DNA of 62,891 nt, counting the filler, from Collodictyon triciliatum (taxonomy: Eukaryota), in assembly GCA_043381765.1 (NCBI GenBank). It is 5 parts of 5 records of this genome, joined end to end, with 100 filler letters (N's around TTAATTAATTAA, not from the genome) between each part and the next. Parts side by side here need not be neighbours in the genome. Positions count along the whole stretch, not along the records: positions 1 to 24,472 come from JBHJMP010000909.1; 4 more parts are not named here. The stretch is one strand, 5' to 3'. The position numbers were made by a program, and so were the translations under genes. Of the stretch, positions 6,735 through 24,572 are shown one piece after another. Under the pieces are notes generated by a model. The model was given only the letters and a program-made list of their open reading frames with translations, ran no database searches and was not told the origin of the DNA. Every line of letters starts with the position of its first letter. Positions within the stretch are counted from its first letter, which is position 1.

Positions 6735-7875
6735 CTTCTCCCTTTCATGGACGCAACCACGAACCGCATCACCACCCCGTGAAACAAACCGTGTTGAGAC
6801 TCGACCTCTGCTTAATGTGATTGCTGCACAGGCTCAAGACATGCAACGCTGAAGAAGACAGGCTCATTCCGCTCACTGAACAGACAGTCCTCATCTTCAG
6901 ACCTGGAAGTAACAGGCAGTGCCGCGCCCGATTCGCATCTGTCGTCCAATGTGATGGTGCCTTCCCCGCTAATGAAGGGATTGTCGATGCGCATCATGTG
7001 AGACAGCTTCACCTCGCCCTCACTTACTTCCCGCACCCTTTTCCCTCTCCCTCGTTTCTGTCTCATTATGGCTGTGATTATGGAATTATTCATGTCNNNN
7101 NNNNNNNNNNNNNNNNNNNNNNNNNNNNNNNNNNNNNNNNNNNNNNNNNNNNNNNNNNNNNNNNNNNNNNNNNNNNNNNNNNNNNNNNNNNNNNNNNNNN
7201 NNNNNNNNNNNNNNNNNNNNNNNNNNNNNNNNNNNNNNNNNNNNNNNNNNNNNNNNNNNNNNNNNNNNNNNNNNNNNNNNNNNNNNNNNNNNNNNNNNNN
7301 NNNNNNNNNNNNNNNNNNNNNNNNNNNNNNNNNNNNNNNNNNNNNNNNNNNNNNNNNNNNNNNNNNNNNNNNNNNNNNNNNNNNNNNNNNNNNNNNNNNN
7401 NNNNNNNNNNNNNNNNNNNNNNNNNNNNNNNNNNNNNNNNNNNNNNNNNNNNNNNNNNNNNNNNNNNNNNNNNNNNNNNNNNNNNNNNNNNNNNNNNNNN
7501 NNNNNNNNNNNNNNNNNNNNNNNNNNNNNNNNNNNNNNNNNNNNNNNNNNNNNNNNNNNNNNNNNNNNNNNNNNNNNNNNNNNNNNNNNNNNNNNNNNNN
7601 NNNNNNNNNNNNNNNNNNNNNNNNNNNNNNNNNNNNNNNNNNNNNNNNNNNNNNNNNNNNNNNNNNNNNNNNNNNNNNNNNNNNNNNNNNNNNNNNNNNN
7701 NNNNNNNNNNNNNNNNNNNNNNNNNNNNNNNNNNNNNNNNNNNNNNNNNNNNNNNNNNNNNNNNNNNNNNNNNNNNNNNNNATTCCCGCCGATCCTGCCA
7801 TACATAAACGCACAACCCGTTTGCTGCGTTGGAAACCACGCCGTGCGACTTCTGCACAAACAACGCCAGAACAAA

Positions 7876-9283: not shown

Positions 9284-11676
9284 CGGCCGTTCCTTTTGCG
9301 TCTCAACCTGCCTGCTTGCCAAGCACAGCCGCAGGACTCTGGAAAAGACCAGGAATACGTGACTTTGAAGGAAACCTGGCACAAAGCACATGAAAGGCTT
9401 TCGCTTCTGGAATGTCAAGAACAGCAGCTTGTTCTCTTAGTAAAGAGTTTACGCGAGGTTATTGCATTCCCTCACGGCGAAAGGCGAAGATATGTGCTGG
9501 ACGCTGTTGAACTTTGCTTATACCCCACTTAATAGCCTTCTCAGCAGACACCACTATTGAACAGCTGGTAAAAGGAAGCATTCAAACCATGGAGCTTCCG
9601 CATATTCGTCCCAATCACACCGTGCAAAACTCATCCGAGCCGGCAGCTATGCGGAAGCAGATGACAACCCAGAAACCCCTACCAAACCTTGCCAAGATGC
9701 GCTCCACTATACCAGCGTACGACCCATATAATCATCACACATCGCACTTTCTCTTTCAACATATATCATAATATTATTCTTTCTAATAATTCTATGACAC
9801 ACTCATTATATAAAAAAGGGGCTCGTTCGGTTCACGAAGCAGTCTTCTGTCCAATGGAAGCAGCGTATTCGAAGCAATTCTCCCAGAGATAACACATATA
9901 TCGTAAGTCCTTTTTTTCCAGTAAATGACACCCCTTTCTGCCGAATAGATTCTTGTCTTCTTAGAAATTATCATACGTACATAATGCGAAAGAAATAGCA
10001 TTAAGCCGTTCTGTAATATGCAAAGAATGTAGTTTCAGTTGAGATTAACAAGAAGTAAGACCCAAACCTTGTTGATTAAAACCACATTCATAATTTAGAA
10101 GCTCACATGCATCAGCCATAAATGTTGTTGGTCTTAATGAGCCACTATGCATCGAAGTTGTTGTAAAGAAGTTGACACTTGCGTCGCATAATCCGTTTTC
10201 TGTTTCGGAGTACTTTCCCTCCACTGTTGTACATGCTATTCTCAACCACGCTCGCAGCATAATACACGAGGTAAAACTTTCTGCTCACGCAGCTAATAGA
10301 AAAAGAAGAGAAAAAAAACATGGGTACATTGGTATTTTCGGAAATGACTGCAGTTTATACTATATAATGCACTTATGTGTTGCAGGAGCAGTGCTATGTA
10401 TATACTAAAAGAGTCGATAATTAGGAAAATAATTTAGTGGAAACTCATATTGATAAGGGAATGGAAAATTTAACCATCGTCGCTGACCTTCATGGACAAA
10501 TATTTGACCTGCTCCATGTATTCCAAACAAAGGGATTTCCTTCAAGCAAGAAACCTTTCGTATTTCTCGGGGATTATGTGGACAGAGGGCTATGGGGATT
10601 TGAAGTTACTATACTACTATTTTTGTTAAAGATTCAGAACCCTAATCATGTCATACTCTTACGTGGAAACCACGAGAGCAGGGAATGCACAGCAGCATAT
10701 GGATTCATGGAGGAAGTGAGTAGTTGCATTTTCATCTTAATGATATCCAAGCCTATTGTTATTACACTTACTATCAAAGAACATCATTTTTTTTTCATTT
10801 TTCAATTCTTTTCCTTACTGCCATAGACTTTAAACTATTATCTAATACAAGCATTTTTTTTATCGGGACATGACGCTGACAATATAATAATTTTTTAATA
10901 TCTTTTCATGCAGATTGAAATCAAGTATGGCCAAGAAATATACGAACACTATATGAGAGTTTTTGACGTACTACCGCTTGGATGTTTGATTACAGGGGCT
11001 TCAACTGACCAAGCCGCCCTATCCATTCATGGTGGACTTTTTCGAAAGCCATTCACGCAGATGACGGGCGACATTTCAGACCTGATGATTGTGGATAGGT
11101 ATGATTAGCATCTACTTGTGTTGTTTAAATGTCTTACTTTTAAATGTTTTTGCCAGGATTTACTCTTTAATCGCAAAAAAAAAAAAAATGCAGATTTTCG
11201 GAACAAGAAAATTAAACTAGATGCAGGTTTTTTTTTGTAACACTAACAAATATCAAACCATTCCACATGGTCACAGAGTTGGCGAACCTCGACAGCGCAC
11301 TATCGAGGACATCCTCTGGAGCGACCCAATGGGAAATGAAGGCATTAGGCCCAACCACAGAAGGCAGAAAGGACTCCACTTTGGACCTAGAGCCACACAA
11401 AGATTTTTAAAAGAAAACAAACTATGCCTCTTGATTCGTGGCCATGAGAGCCCCAAGAGTCGTGTAAATCGCAAAGGACTGAAGGCGATGCCGCAAGGAT
11501 TTGCGGTGGACCATAGCGGAGCTCACGGTGCTGTCGTGACACTTTCATCAACAACGAATGCTGGGCCAGCAGCCTATCTTGTGATGGATGCAACACTCAA
11601 TTATACGATGAGGGCTATCCGTACGACGCCAGAGAGATTGATGGCAGAGGCAGCCTTCCGTTCGTATGCCGCGTGA
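9284..11676 (+). CDS. PPP-family Ser/Thr protein phosphatase, plant PP7-like (start codon uncertain)
   Basis: Exons 10425-10715, 10914-11098 and 11277-11676 give ADLHGQ, GDYVDRGLWG, LRGNHES..CT..YGF, HGGLFR, DILWSDP, IRGHESPKSRVNRKGLKAMPQGFAVDH. Upstream exon ~10099-10270 encodes the pre-catalytic helix. Further exons at 9284-9900 encode a coiled-coil N-extension. Confidence 0.9.
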
Positions 11677-12498: not shown

Positions 12499-13883
12499 CT
12501 AAACGGGCGTCATGATTTCATACCGGAATTCGGTGAATCCTCTCTCGTTGTTCAACTCATCTGCTAGCTGGGAAAACCTTGAAGTCCAGATAATTAAAAT
12601 TTAGGGTCCAAACGACTGAAGGCAAATGAACCAGAAGTCTTCTTTTGAAAATATCTGAGCCACCAGCTGTCGTGAAGGAAAACTTAAATGGGTGGTAAAT
12701 TTTTTATTTATAAAAATCTTCCTTACTTCTGACGCTCCACAGATGACTCGCTTCTCCACATTTCCCCCAGAATTTGAAGGAGTTGCTGGTTAGTTGCATA
12801 GGGATTTTCTGTCCTCACTTTTGTCCGCTTTACAATGGTGTACGCGATGTAGGAATTTATAGGTGTATACGACTTTGTCTTCCTATTTAAAAAAAATATG
12901 TAAACAAAACGAAAAGAATGCGCGCTAAGAGAGTGCATAAAAATGCATATGTTAAAAAGAAGTTAAAATTGTAAAGTTTGATGATAGAAGCAGGAAGGGT
13001 AGGGAGTGCACGTATATCGCAACCTTTTCCCAGAGCGACTTGCACGGTCCATCAGTGCAGAAGACACAGCAGAGGGCAAGGAAGATAATACAGAAGAATT
13101 CGATTTGGCCGATGAAGCAGCATTAGACGCATCTGCAGTCTTTTCTGGGTACATGTGCTGCATAAAATGATATACAAAGGGCATTTCTGGCTGTGGCTGT
13201 GTTTGTGATTGTGGTTGGGCTCTGTGTTTGTTTGATATAGGCGGAGGAGATTGCGGGCGAATGGCTGGCTGTGGAGTTTCAGTACGTAGCATAGGCGGCT
13301 TATTTGAGCTGGAGCCAGTTGTAGAATCAGGAAGAGGCTTCGATTCGGCCTCCTGCAGCGCCCGCGAGTTCTGACTGGCAAATTCCTGTGGCCGATGAAG
13401 TGACGTGATTTGAAGAACAGCAGAGGTCTGTGACAACTGCGACGACTCGGATGAGACGGACGATGATGTCGTATTCTTTGGGGCGATGGTGTGAAGTAGC
13501 GAGGCTGCATTGAGAATGTCATCCGAGTTGGGTGAATTGACCATGGAGTTGTGTTTGGGAGGGGACGGGTTGGCAGACACACCAGAATGTTGGTGAGCTC
13601 TCCTGGAATTGAATGCCGTCAGTTTATTTTCTTTTCTCTTTGTCTTTTTATCAGAGGGTCAATATACAACGTATATGTGATATGTGATAGGGGTGGATTA
13701 ATAAAGCAGCGATAGAAACTCATACGGTGGGTGGGACGGGAGGAAGTGATGAAGCATCGGCGGCTGAAGAAGCGGCACTTGGAAGGGGATCGCCGTGTGT
13801 GCGTCTGGGACAAAGCGGGGCAGAATGGGCGAAAGCGGCCGATGTTTGGGCGGCGATGCAGGCGCGCCGAGATTGAAGTCCAT
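12499..13883 (-). CDS. HMG-box transcription factor (3' end uncertain; may extend to ~12200)
   Basis: ATG 13883; exons 13883-13726, 13602-~13012, 12882-~12728, then from ~12577. Box reads TPINSYIAYTIVKRTKVRTENPYATNQQLLQILGEMWRSESSVERQK|FSQLADELNNER. Confidence 0.85.
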
Positions 13884-20257: not shown

Positions 20258-21084
20258 TCCGTTTGGTGCCGTGTAATTTCAATCATAAGCACAAAATTAT
20301 ATTAAGGTGTGAAACAAAACCACATTACGAACTCCCTCCAACTAATCCCTATTTCACATAAGTGACAGAAGAAAAAGCAAAAACGCCTGACTATGAACAT
20401 TTTCTATTTTGCTTGTCATGCGATTGCCCCTCCAAAAAAAAAAAAGTAATAAACTAACAATCAAAAGTAAAACTCGTTCGTACCATCTCCAATTTTTGCG
20501 TATTACTATTAAGACTCAATCCTACCGTAATCAATCTGCAATATACCACTAATATCTAGTCAAGGATGTCCAAACGTGTGGATGTTACGGAACAAGAGCT
20601 CACGCGACTTCGGTTACGTCTAGTCTACGGTCTGAGAACATGATTTGGTACGAGATGGATTGGTGCTATTTTGAGGGTTTGGCGGTTTCCTGAGCCCCAA
20701 ACCTTGGTGCACGAACAACTCCATCTAACATTCATGTAAGTCATAATCGAAAGTATACTGCATGACATGTCCTGCTCAGCAATGTCCACGAGTGTGGGGC
20801 GAGACATGAATAATCTGTGCCTTCCTGCCGCACGAGCTCAGACGAATCGATGAAGAACTATGGAATGTCCAGCGCTGGTAAGAAAAGAGAAGAGAAAACC
20901 CCTTGTTTAATCGGCACACGACGCCCGACGAATTAGCACGCGCAACAAAACTCAACAAAACCCCAACAAAAAACCCCAACAAAAAACCCCAACAAAAAAC
21001 CCAACAAAAAAACCCAACGAAAAAACAAAGAATAAAGAAAACATAAATAAAATAAAATAAAAACACAGGAAAAGAGCCCTGAAA

Positions 21085-23432
21085 ATGCTCCGCAGCCTCC
21101 GCCGGCTGGTGCAACAAAGCAGCGCCTCACAGCCAACTGCACAAGCAGCACGTTTCTCTCCCGCACGACTTCTTCTCACGACCCGCTGCACAAGTGCCTC
21201 TGCCGTTTCACCTGAGGACGAAAAGCTCGACAGCTACAACTTCGACTTGCCGGAGGAGTCCATTGCCGTGAATCCGGTGGTTCCCCGCCATGCATCGCGA
21301 CTCTTGTGCGTCGAAAACCGTGCAAAGCATACACACATGACCGACTTTCTCTCCATCCACACATTGCTGAAGCCGCACGACCTTCTTATATTCAACGACA
21401 CACGGGTCATTTCCGCACGCATGTTTGCCCGCCTGACCGAGAGCACGTCATCCGGCGAAAAAGCGGAGCCTCGCGCTCAATCGAAAGGTCTGGAAAAACG
21501 AGACACACCCCAGACTCGTATGGCAAACGAGGTTTTTCTGCTTGAGCCACGGGGAGAAAATACTTGGTTGGCGATGTTTCGCAAGGCGAAGCGCATTCGG
21601 GTCGGCTCCGTCATTGAGTTTGTCAAGGAATCGCAGCCGCAGCTGCCAAAGTATAGTGTGCTGATGATGCCTTTAACATGTGATTTTGTTTTATTTAGCT
21701 TTGGATATATATTTACATTTACTGGTTCTTATTTACCTTTTGACGTAACCATCGAACCTCCTTTCTCTATACAGATTGTATGGGAGGATATTGGACGTTG
21801 ATGATACGATGGGATGCCGTGTAGTCAAGTTTGAGTCTACTGATGTCACAGGGTGGATTTCAGAATTGAAAAAAAAATGAGGAATAGAAAACTTTTTTTT
21901 TTGGATTCGTCCCATTTACACATACTATTTCATTTACGTTTATATAATCCAAGAAAAAATAATCAATTGTATTAGTTTGCAGATGGCAGACCTGATTCAT
22001 AACTATGGGGAAGTTCCACTCCCACCATATATCAAAAACAGCTCGGCCGACCCATCTCAGTACCAAACCATCTACAGCAAAAAGGAAGGTGCGGTGGCAG
22101 CCCCAACTGCTGGGCTGCATTTCACTGAGGAAGTCTTTAAGCTCTTGAAAGATAAGGTAGTCACATCAAAGTTCGAAGATATCCATTGACGAATGGACAC
22201 AAGAGTTGCTGATGCGCTATTTTATGCTTCGATTTTTCTTTGAAAAAAAAAAAAAAGTGATCAATATTGGACTAAATAACTCTGTTCATTCATACGTCTT
22301 AATTTTGTTGTTGCAGGGCGTGAACACAGAGTTTCTGACGCTGCACGTGGGTATTGGGACATTCAAACCTGTAAAAGTGACAAATATTAAAGAGCATGAC
22401 ATGCATGCAGAGTATGCCGAGGTGACAGACAAGGTTGTTGCGGCTATAAATTCAGCGAAGGTATGTGCTATTCAACAATTTGATCATAAATATATGCCTT
22501 TATCCATCAATGCTACTTTATTTTCCCCTTATCAAAAAATATATATATATAACACGTGCCTTTATATATACAGCGATGTTTATAATTGATTCCCCTGCAT
22601 TTAGCAAGCGAGGATTTTCAAACGAAGATTCATATTTTTCTCTGAATTATTCTTAATACAGGAGAAGGGTGGTAGAATATTTGCTGTTGGGACTACAACA
22701 GCTCGTGCATTAGAAGCAGTCGCATCAGCAAATAATGGCTCTCTTGTCTCACACACAGGAAAGGTAGCTGCAATCAAATAATGAAAATTGACTTGCTTTA
22801 TTGACCTTGTTCATTTCAATTGTATTTCTTTCTATATTTTTTTTTTAAAAAAAAAACAACAGCTCCATCTCGTTATTTTATATATTGATGATAGCTGAAT
22901 ATCTAATCACAGCCTTTCTGATAGTTTTGATCTATTATTTAATTTCATGGGTGATTTTGATCCTTTTGATGAGAACATATTACATAAATCTAGGGAATAA
23001 ATGAACACTTTTCTTAAAAAAAAATATACATATTTGCATATAATTTAAATTAGGTGAACATTTTTATTTACCCTGGATACAAGTGGAAAGTTCTAGATGG
23101 CCTCATCACAAACTTCCATCTTCCAAAAAGCACCCTTCTCATGATGGTCAGCTCACTCATCGGGCGTGTCCGACTTTTGCAATTATACAGGTAGAATTAT
23201 ATATATACAGCCGCAGTCGATGATGAATTTAAATCGTGTGTAGTCTTCCAAACTATTTTCCTCTGCGCAATCATAGTGCATGCATCGAAAGAGAATGTAC
23301 GTGGTGAATATTAACAAACACTTGCTGGATTGCAGGGAGGCTGTTGACCTCAAATACCGCTTCTTCTCATTCGGCGACGCGATGATTATCATGCCAGAAA
23401 GTAGAATCGACAAATTAGACACGCCGAATTAA
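21085..23432 (+). CDS. queA: S-adenosylmethionine:tRNA ribosyltransferase-isomerase (QueA), 7 exons, with N-terminal organellar presequence
   Basis: Exons 21085-21650, 21775-21852, 21976-22156, 22317-22460, 22662-22763, 23054-23190, 23336-23432 join in frame across six GT-AG introns. Motifs: [118 protein letters not shown]. Confidence 0.97.
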
Positions 23433-24280: not shown

Positions 24281-24472
24281 GTGTTTTCGATTATTCATGT
24301 TGTTTCCTGCAGCTTCGCTATACCTTTTATTTTCAACTCGTTTATTTTTTTATTTTTTTATTTTTTATTTTTTATTTTTTGTATGTATGTATGTATGTAT
24401 GTATGTATGTATGTATGTATGTATGTATGTATGTATGTATGTATGTATGTATGTATGTATGTATGTATGTAT

Positions 24473-24572
24473 NNNNNNNNNNNNNNNNNNNNNNNNNNNN
24501 NNNNNNNNNNNNNNNNTTAATTAATTAANNNNNNNNNNNNNNNNNNNNNNNNNNNNNNNNNNNNNNNNNNNN
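24473..24572. other. Artificial 100-bp contig spacer N44-TTAATTAATTAA-N44 (also at 55365-55464, 58220-58319, 61638-61737)
   Basis: Identical structure four times; the 12-mer puts stop codons in all six frames. Confidence 0.95.

Follow-up and report, generated by a model that had tools for sequence, protein, structure and literature searches.

The window analysed here is a 62,891-nt joined stretch of DNA from Collodictyon triciliatum (assembly GCA_043381765.1), and positions 21085–23432 of its plus strand hold a gene for QueA, the tRNA preQ1(34) S-adenosylmethionine ribosyltransferase-isomerase (Table 1). As predicted from the sequence, the gene consists of seven exons and six introns, all of them bounded by GT and AG. 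Its ATG at 21085 is the first in-frame ATG downstream of an in-frame TAA at 21058, an additional exon upstream of this start may exist, and the reading frame closes with a TAA codon whose last base is 23432. The spliced product is 434 aa long, or 429 aa with the other solution for intron 2, where two frame-compatible combinations of exon 2 end and exon 3 start (21852/21976 or 21844/21983) leave the protein with two residues more or three residues fewer, respectively, than the aligned homologues. Splice junctions fall in ungapped conserved columns of the alignment with cyanobacterial QueA in five of six cases. The exons carry neither frameshifts nor internal stops and have a GC content of 0.503 (introns, 0.292), while each of the six introns, if translated in continuation of the exon frame, runs into a stop codon.

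Table 1. Features of the QueA gene in the Collodictyon triciliatum window (positions along the whole stretch).
Feature	Position	Strand	Description
N-terminal extension, residues 1–43	21085..21213	+	putative organellar targeting peptide
Exon 1	21085..21650	+	start codon, presequence, N-terminal QueA domain; residues 1–188 plus 2 nt; PF02547 2–106 (E 1.5e-22), NF001140 2–113 (85.6 bits); followed by donor site GTATAG
Loop insertion, 21 residues (128–148)	21466..21528	+	lineage-specific; from alignment
Intron 1	21651..21774	+	124 nt, GT..AG, phase 2; GC 0.323; read-through stop
Exon 2	21775..21852	+	78 nt, alternative end 21844; 25 aa
Intron 2	21853..21975	+	123 nt; alternative 21845–21982, 138 nt
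Exon 3	21976..22156	+	alternative start 21983; motifs PLPPYI and [10 protein letters not shown]; PF02547 127–180 (E 2e-20); PDB QueA 1yy3 (E 2.1e-17)
Intron 3	22157..22316	+	160 nt, phase 0; junction in ungapped conserved columns
Exon 4	22317..22460	+	PF02547 181–228 (E 1.3e-14)
Intron 4	22461..22661	+	201 nt, phase 0
Exon 5	22662..22763	+	PF02547 230–252 (E 3.7e-5)
Intron 5	22764..23053	+	290 nt, phase 0
Exon 6	23054..23190	+	GLITNFHLP motif; PF02547 260–303 (E 5.1e-18)
Intron 6	23191..23335	+	145 nt, phase 2
Exon 7	23336..23432	+	ends in TAA stop; PF02547 305–322 (E 1.3e-4)

Translations of six of the seven exons matched the Pfam profile PF02547 (Queuosine_synth, 322 positions) in collinear order, with E values from 1.5e-22 to 1.3e-4. 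The 25 residues of exon 2 gave no Pfam match on their own; they align gap-free with the homologous stretch of cyanobacterial QueA and fill the part of the profile between the exon 1 and exon 3 matches. Summed over the exons, the bit scores came to 340.4 for NF001140 (cut-off 324) and 330.2 for TIGR00113 (cut-off 267.45), both being rough sums and not true whole-protein scores. In the PDB, exon 1 matched the sequences of the three solved QueA enzymes and no others (3/3), from Thermotoga maritima (1VKY), Bacillus subtilis (1YY3) and Thermus thermophilus (1WDI), and the same held for exon 3 (3/3); the window protein shares its Pfam and NCBIfam family with these enzymes, whereas its leader and introns have no equivalent in them.

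Residues 45–428 of the spliced model aligned with cyanobacterial QueA proteins of 374–381 aa at 45–49% identity (best E 9e-127). Near-invariant columns, defined as those where 95% or more of 250 reference QueA rows share one residue (a set biased to cyanobacteria, Bacillota and Bacteroidota), were kept in 74 of 75 cases, the single departure being a serine in place of proline at residue 110, and such conservation suggests that selection has acted on the canonical activity. The collinear profile matches, the end-to-end alignment with bacterial QueA and the conserved columns bear out the claim of a preliminary description of this locus that the protein is a full-length QueA, and together they indicate a genuine, intron-bearing nuclear gene that is apparently functional. 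The loop that carries the lineage-specific insertion differs in length from one cyanobacterial QueA to another as well, and insertions at or near it occur in the sequences P0267, P0241, P0242 and P0253.

In a careful tree of 57 rows, the QueA gene fell inside a clade of 31 rows with support of 100/99; the other members of this clade are 22 named cyanobacteria, three rows that are cyanobacterial by their cluster mates, four unnamed rows and one eukaryotic transcript from MMETSP. The 26 rows outside it belong to Pseudomonadota, Bacillota, Bacteroidota, Verrucomicrobiota, Thermodesulfobacteriota and Bdellovibrionota, with one Rickettsiales row. Bacillota is the phylum of B. subtilis, the source of 1YY3, and nothing ties the phyla of the three solved enzymes to the window gene in particular. 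A quick tree of 70 rows, to which 14 full-length representatives from an exhaustive HMMER search had been added, returned the same placement (a 32-row clade, SH-aLRT 96). Since the gene sits inside the cyanobacterial QueA clade, we regard it as cyanobacterium-derived on the strength of these trees, the other sampled phyla being excluded from the clade in a bacterial sampling limited by having no named Gloeobacter, Gloeomargarita or free-living Alphaproteobacteria. Likeness to the cyanobacterial proteins (such as the Leptothoe/Leptolyngbya, Microcoleus and Nostocales rows) extends over clade membership, conserved motifs and identity across the whole domain, whereas the window gene differs from them in its six spliceosomal introns, its 43-residue leader, its 21-residue loop insertion and its long terminal branch (1.28 changes per column in the 57-row tree, against a median of 0.43).

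The MMETSP transcript (P0267) was the one eukaryotic relative found among 20 cluster look-ups; as a sister of the QueA gene it was not rejected by the AU test (p = 0.089), and its own best 120 matches were otherwise cyanobacterial or unnamed. No Chloropicon or red-algal QueA sequence was among the matches listed in the homologue searches. A metagenome scan yielded 13 loci, none of them above 48% identity, which going by that low identity only appear to be bacterial, and a scan of genome contigs yielded 22 bacterial loci, with 27–38% identity in the nine matches covering most of the query length and as much as 50% over short segments. Neither scan contained a relative close enough for a comparison of exon and intron conservation. 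Among 21 sequencing runs listed for the window the best share of words was 0.31 and the rest were at most 0.18, small shares that say nothing for or against expression or habitat.

The protein begins with a 43-residue extension that the shortest cyanobacterial homologues of the alignment lack. The extension of about 42 residues quoted in the preliminary description, where it was called Arg/Ser/Ala-rich and free of acidic residues, is present letter for letter. Residues 1–43 contain six Arg, seven Ala, 12 Ser/Thr and no Asp or Glu, the first acidic residue of the protein being at position 44. The helical hydrophobic moment of residues 1–11 is 0.90, a value reached by 13 of 2000 shuffles. Acid-free, Arg-rich leaders with an amphipathic start are common to mitochondrial presequences and many primary-plastid transit peptides, and both the composition and the amphipathic start fit an organellar presequence. 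A signal peptide or bipartite leader at the annotated N-terminus was considered and ruled out, as the mean Kyte-Doolittle value over nine residues reaches a maximum of only 0.93. The suggestion that the extension is an organellar presequence agrees with its composition and its amphipathic start, while the further statement that the organelle is most likely the mitochondrion is weakened by the cyanobacterial descent of the enzyme.

What was observed directly at this locus is the exon-intron structure of the gene, its membership of the QueA family, the conserved residues that it retains, its affinity to cyanobacteria and the composition of the leader. From these, QueA is real, probably functional and predicted to be targeted to an organelle, and our preferred reading, to which we give a probability of roughly 60%, is that a nuclear QueA of cyanobacterial descent is imported, most likely into the mitochondrion, where it would perform the middle step of a bacterial-type organellar queuosine (Q) pathway. 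On this proposal a cyanobacterium-derived gene would have acquired its six spliceosomal introns and the coding sequence of an N-terminal targeting peptide; its product would be made in the cytosol, imported into the organelle and relieved of its leader after import. QueA would then use SAM to convert preQ1 at position 34 into epoxyqueuosine (oQ) on what are presumed to be organelle-encoded tRNA-Asp, tRNA-Asn, tRNA-His and tRNA-Tyr, acting after a presumed bacterial-like TGT (BL-TGT) and before a presumed QueG or QueH. Points against this reading are the serine at residue 110, the lack of any partner gene among the 150 longest ORFs of the window and the pocket of the eukaryotic BL-TGT, which is reported to resemble that of a queuine-accepting chlamydial enzyme (PMC12301720); if the BL-TGT were to insert queuine directly, QueA would be left with no substrate. 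To our knowledge, the textbook view is that eukaryotes are unable to make queuosine and rely on queuine from bacteria or the diet. Eukaryotic salvage by the QTRT1/QTRT2 transglycosylase with QNG1 leads to the same end product, Q34 on tRNAs with GUN anticodons; unlike the pathway proposed here, however, it inserts ready-made queuine and has no need of QueA (PMC12301720). An intact nuclear QueA makes sense only with preQ1 insertion into some tRNA pool, so that each such gene marks a lineage in which an organelle would carry out some steps of the bacterial pathway.

A eukaryotic organellar QueA is not in itself a new idea, as such a pathway, predicted to be mitochondrial, was already published in 2025 for Chloropicon and Galdieria; this is not the widespread occurrence in the organelles of this lineage that the preliminary description had mentioned. 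That report describes predicted mitochondrial BL-TGT, QueA, QueG and sometimes YhhQ in Chloropicon primus and C. roscoffensis, with Galdieria sulphuraria as a second case (Genome Biol Evol 2025, PMC12301720); the literature searched contained no other description of a eukaryotic QueA. The Collodictyon gene resembles the algal ones, as they are described there, in being nuclear, in having an N-terminal leader that is interpreted as an organellar presequence and in its proposed role of converting preQ1-tRNA to oQ-tRNA inside the organelle. The partner genes were shown in the algae, whereas here QueA is the one member of the proposed pathway that was seen, and the cyanobacterial affinity is clear here, whereas the main text of that paper never uses the word 'cyanobacteria'. 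The present gene thus fits the organellar queuosine pathway first described in algae and not a wholly new one (PMC12301720), and joins the two published algal groups as an independent case whose gene model is well resolved. Its cyanobacterial type is relevant to the assembly of the pathway in evolution and to the question of which organelle the pathway serves, and the gene offers a concrete target for localisation studies and tRNA mass spectrometry.

That the gene might not work at all, either as bacterial contamination of the assembly or as a decaying pseudogene, might be suggested by the fact that its best sequence matches are all bacterial, but we consider this highly improbable. The contamination reading is contradicted by the structure of the gene, which aligns collinearly with its homologues only once six GT-AG introns with their stop codons are removed; decay sits badly with exons that keep an open frame throughout, and intron-split eukaryotic genes flank QueA on the same contig, its neighbours including an exon-split Metallophos gene and genes with PWWP, HMG box and LRR domains. 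The statement in the preliminary description that the locus is no bacterial contaminant accordingly holds. Also unlikely, though less so, is an orphan or repurposed QueA, in which the N-extension would be no targeting peptide or the partners would be missing, so that the enzyme would work in the cytosol, take the modification no further than epoxyqueuosine or serve another role. Consistent with this, no TGT, QueG, QueH or YhhQ/Vut_1 was present among the 150 longest of the 220 ORFs of the window. The almost complete set of conserved columns speaks against it, however, as does the leader, since an acid-free stretch of 43 residues is unlikely to arise by chance beside a mature part with 12.1% Asp+Glu. 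In a tblastn search of the window with 240 flank ORFs of bacterial queA loci, used without regard to their tgt content, none of the 141 HSPs lay outside the QueA gene, and the window gave 0 Rfam matches and 0 tRNA genes.

The destination of the protein is where another reading comes closer to ours. Given the cyanobacterial descent, plastid or dual targeting is a serious competitor, provided that the organism possesses a primary plastid: the same enzyme would be imported into a plastid, or into plastid and mitochondrion alike, and a cyanobacterial Q pathway would have been kept on plastid tRNAs, by ordinary endosymbiotic gene transfer and in its original compartment. A protein bound for the plastid would be expected to have cyanobacterial ancestors, and here the placement within the cyanobacterial clade is strong; the leader is moreover rich in Ser, Thr and Ala (19 of 43 residues), and organellar tRNA enzymes are often dually targeted. 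Against this, an Arg-rich amphipathic helix such as residues 1–11 would make is more characteristic of presequences for mitochondria, and a leader with no signal-peptide core excludes a secondary plastid, barring a further exon upstream. The published homologues, too, were predicted to be mitochondrial by DeepLoc 2.1 and PredAlgo (PMC12301720). We therefore regard plastid or dual import as possible, if on the improbable side, and continue to prefer import into the mitochondrion.

A mosaic origin of the pathway can be put forward tentatively, and we hold it to be rather doubtful. In the mosaic version, a cyanobacterium-derived QueA of the plastid lineage would have been rerouted to the mitochondrion, where it would act behind a TGT of chlamydial origin, and mitochondrial tRNAs would receive Q without any need of queuine, from preQ1 that is either scavenged or made by the organism itself. 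If true, this window would extend the pathway to a further lineage, one that may be neither green nor red and may even lack a plastid.

Two minor observations concern sequences other than QueA. Database rows for a phosphatase exon and for the LRR protein pointed to taxa only broadly or weakly and carry no weight here, those for the LRR protein all scoring below 0.9, with the commonest taxa ranging from Echinodermata and Cnidaria to Bacillariophyta, and a partial match to ApeC lay slightly below the Pfam cut-off.

The gene at 21085-23432 (+) encodes a protein that, judged by its sequence, is QueA, the tRNA preQ1(34) S-adenosylmethionine ribosyltransferase-isomerase. Its motif pieces are spread over three frames of the stop-to-stop open reading frames, with AT-rich stretches between them, and two seven-exon, frame-preserving models, A (434 aa) and B (429 aa), were built from the positions of GT and AG, differing solely at intron 2 (table below). 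All six introns are bordered by GT..AG and meet a stop when read through from the exon frame; in model A they are 124, 123, 160, 201, 290 and 145 nt long, and GC is 0.292 in the introns versus 0.503 in the exons. The first in-frame ATG past a TAA at 21058 was taken as the start. When aligned with ten homologues (MAFFT), junctions 1, 3, 4, 5 and 6 fell in ungapped columns and exon 2 matched the expected stretch, while at intron 2 model A carried two residues more, and model B three fewer, than the cyanobacterial rows. An A/C-rich array (20900-21060) lies immediately upstream of the start.

Coordinates of the QueA exons and of other protein-coding features in the window
Feature	Position	Strand	Remark
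QueA exon 1	21085-21650	+	model A
QueA exon 2	21775-21852	+	model A; ends at 21844 in model B
QueA exon 3	21976-22156	+	model A; starts at 21983 in model B
QueA exon 4	22317-22460	+	model A
QueA exon 5	22662-22763	+	model A
QueA exon 6	23054-23190	+	model A
QueA exon 7	23336-23432	+	model A
PPP-family Ser/Thr phosphatase (Metallophos)	10425-10823, 11221-11673	+	at least two exons
HMG box	12726-12962	-	
PWWP exon	31435-31800	-	
Coiled-coil gene	34756-36376		
LRR receptor-like exons	48806-50095, 51339-51776	-	

Translated singly, six of the seven exons matched PF02547 collinearly over profile positions 2-322 (E 1.5e-22 to 1.3e-4), and the 25-residue exon 2 had no Pfam match when searched alone. 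The same six exons matched the NCBIfam QueA equivalogs NF001140 and TIGR00113, with rough bit sums, from exons scored singly and not from the spliced protein, of 340.4 (cut-off 324) and 330.2 (cut-off 267.45), respectively. Exons 1 and 3 each matched only the solved structures 1vky, 1yy3 and 1wdi, all of them QueA. Against 250 reference rows, made up of a random sample of 230 from the 376 fetched proteins of full-length size and of 20 from the 22 bacterial locus ORFs, 74 of the 75 near-invariant columns (those in which at least 95% of rows share a residue) were kept, the sole loss being a Pro to Ser change at residue 110. The enzyme looks functional.

In local BLASTP against 392 fetched proteins, residues 45-428 of model A aligned with cyanobacterial-type QueA proteins of 374-381 aa at 45-49% identity (best E 9e-127). 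In a word-based search with exon 1, the matches were confined to distant bacterial QueA proteins, at 36% identity or less, with 647 proteins at E <= 0.001 among 1492 candidates. When the mature portion of this exon was used in an exhaustive HMMER search, 4686 proteins reached E <= 0.001, 82 reached E <= 1e-10 and none E <= 1e-30. The named proteins among the 120 matches listed for exon 3 were from cyanobacteria (Leptothoe, Leptolyngbya, Microcoleus and others) or Algoriphagus. Twenty cluster look-ups yielded one eukaryote, the MMETSP transcript P0267, a second eukaryotic QueA in the form of a 243-aa fragment that its source marks as complete. P0267 has a basic, acid-poor N-extension of about 40 residues (2 Arg, 2 Lys, 2 His and 1 Glu ahead of the first Asp) and a loop insertion near the place of that in the window's protein, and its best 120 relatives were cyanobacterial or unnamed (42-50% identity).

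A 57-row IQ-TREE phylogeny comprised the window's protein, P0267, 22 named cyanobacteria, seven unnamed close matches, four unnamed representatives, named Bacillota and Bacteroidota, and 16 of the 22 named bacterial loci from the contig scan (L002, L003, L017, L018, L020 and L021 were omitted, being near-duplicates or extras of represented groups). The window's protein fell in a 31-row clade (support 100/99) that unites all cyanobacterial rows and leaves the other 26 outside; the protein's position is near the base of this clade among bacterial rows that were drawn by similarity search and include no named early-branching cyanobacteria or free-living Alphaproteobacteria. Cluster mates named three unnamed rows as cyanobacterial (Microcoleus/Lyngbya, Roseofilum and Hydrococcus) and one row outside the clade as Lyticum (Rickettsiales). 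Of 23 full-length-sized representatives from the exhaustive search, six were already in the set and three were excluded since their C-termini were judged from sequence to be frameshifted or fused; with the other 14 added and the bacterial locus on the longest branch, L022, dropped, the placement was kept in the resulting 70-row tree (32-row clade, SH-aLRT 96). The free tree does not group the window's protein with P0267 as sisters, an arrangement that was not rejected (AU p = 0.089). The metagenomic protein P0256 (356 aa), which falls within the cyanobacterial clade of the 70-row tree, combines a DnaJ-like N-terminal half with the beginning of a QueA of cyanobacterial type; it may be genuinely fused or an artefact of gene calling.

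Among residues 1-43 there are 6 Arg, 12 Ser/Thr, 7 Ala, 6 Leu and no Asp or Glu; acidic residues appear only from position 44 on, and Asp plus Glu make up 12.1% of the mature part. In the alignment, the shortest cyanobacterial homologues start opposite about residue 44. The helical hydrophobic moment of residues 1-11 is 0.90, a value attained in 13 out of 2000 shuffled versions of the 44-residue segment, and an R-3-like site occurs at residue 34. A signal-peptide core is absent, because the maximal Kyte-Doolittle 9-residue mean over the first 53 residues is only 0.93. The putative leader thus looks like a mitochondrial presequence, an appearance that algal primary-plastid transit peptides can share. 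The preliminary description of an intact, nuclear, intron-bearing QueA with an organellar-looking leader is upheld.

The concept of an organellar bacterial-type queuosine pathway in eukaryotes had already been published in 2025 (Genome Biol Evol, PMC12301720). That paper reports nuclear genes for bacterial-like TGT, QueA and QueG in all Chloropicon isolates and YhhQ in some, predicts their products to be mitochondrial by DeepLoc 2.1 and PredAlgo, and describes itself as the first to report a pathway of this kind. For the eukaryotic bacterial-like TGT it gives a chlamydial origin, citing Manna and Harman 2016. The word 'cyanobacteria' is absent from its main text, and no further publication on eukaryotic QueA was found in the literature collection searched. 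The cyanobacterial descent of the window's QueA is a modest addition.

The mitochondrion is the most likely compartment, because the leader has an Arg-rich amphipathic start and lacks a signal peptide, and because mitochondrial location was predicted for the published homologues. Plastid or dual targeting ranks second because the ancestry of QueA is cyanobacterial. The earlier interpretation is partly supported; the mitochondrial destination is less certain than it claimed. The precursor would be imported into an organelle and its leader cleaved near residues 35-44; after insertion of preQ1 at position 34 by a bacterial-like TGT, mature QueA would take the ribosyl group from SAM, transfer it to preQ1(34) in GUN-anticodon tRNAs encoded by the organelle and isomerise it, and the resulting epoxyqueuosine would then be reduced by QueG or QueH.

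Among the 150 longest of the window's 220 ORFs, nine Pfam families were found in total, and none of TGT, QueG, QueH or YhhQ/Vut_1; no Rfam matches or tRNA genes were found in the window. Bacterial contamination was ruled out by the QueA introns together with the eukaryotic-type neighbouring genes. The first phosphatase exon carries GDxHG, GDxVDRG and GNHE motifs. The stretch 47531-52245 (-) holds one or more receptor-like genes in which plant-type LRRs are accompanied by a Cys-rich EGF/furin-like stretch and by hydrophobic segments, transmembrane-like by eye only; Atlas neighbours of the LRR gene all scored below 0.9 and were of mixed taxa. A partial ApeC match (apextrin C-terminal domain, PF16977) at 40657-40986 (+), covering profile positions 51-94 of 208 (E 1e-5, 26.0 bits versus a cut-off of 26.5), is too weak to name the gene or a lineage. 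Microsatellite and low-complexity arrays are abundant (e.g. 24400-24470, 45400-45700 and 61900-62550) and include ATGT repeats, CAAA-type repeats and long A/T-rich runs that yield poly-K or poly-F ORFs. Four copies of a pattern of 44 N, 12 bases and 44 N (24473-24572, 55365-55464, 58220-58319 and 61638-61737) each adjoin microsatellite arrays, and two long N runs occur at 7097-7781 (685 bases) and 33334-33785 (452 bases); these N patterns appear to be artefacts of assembly or masking at simple repeats.
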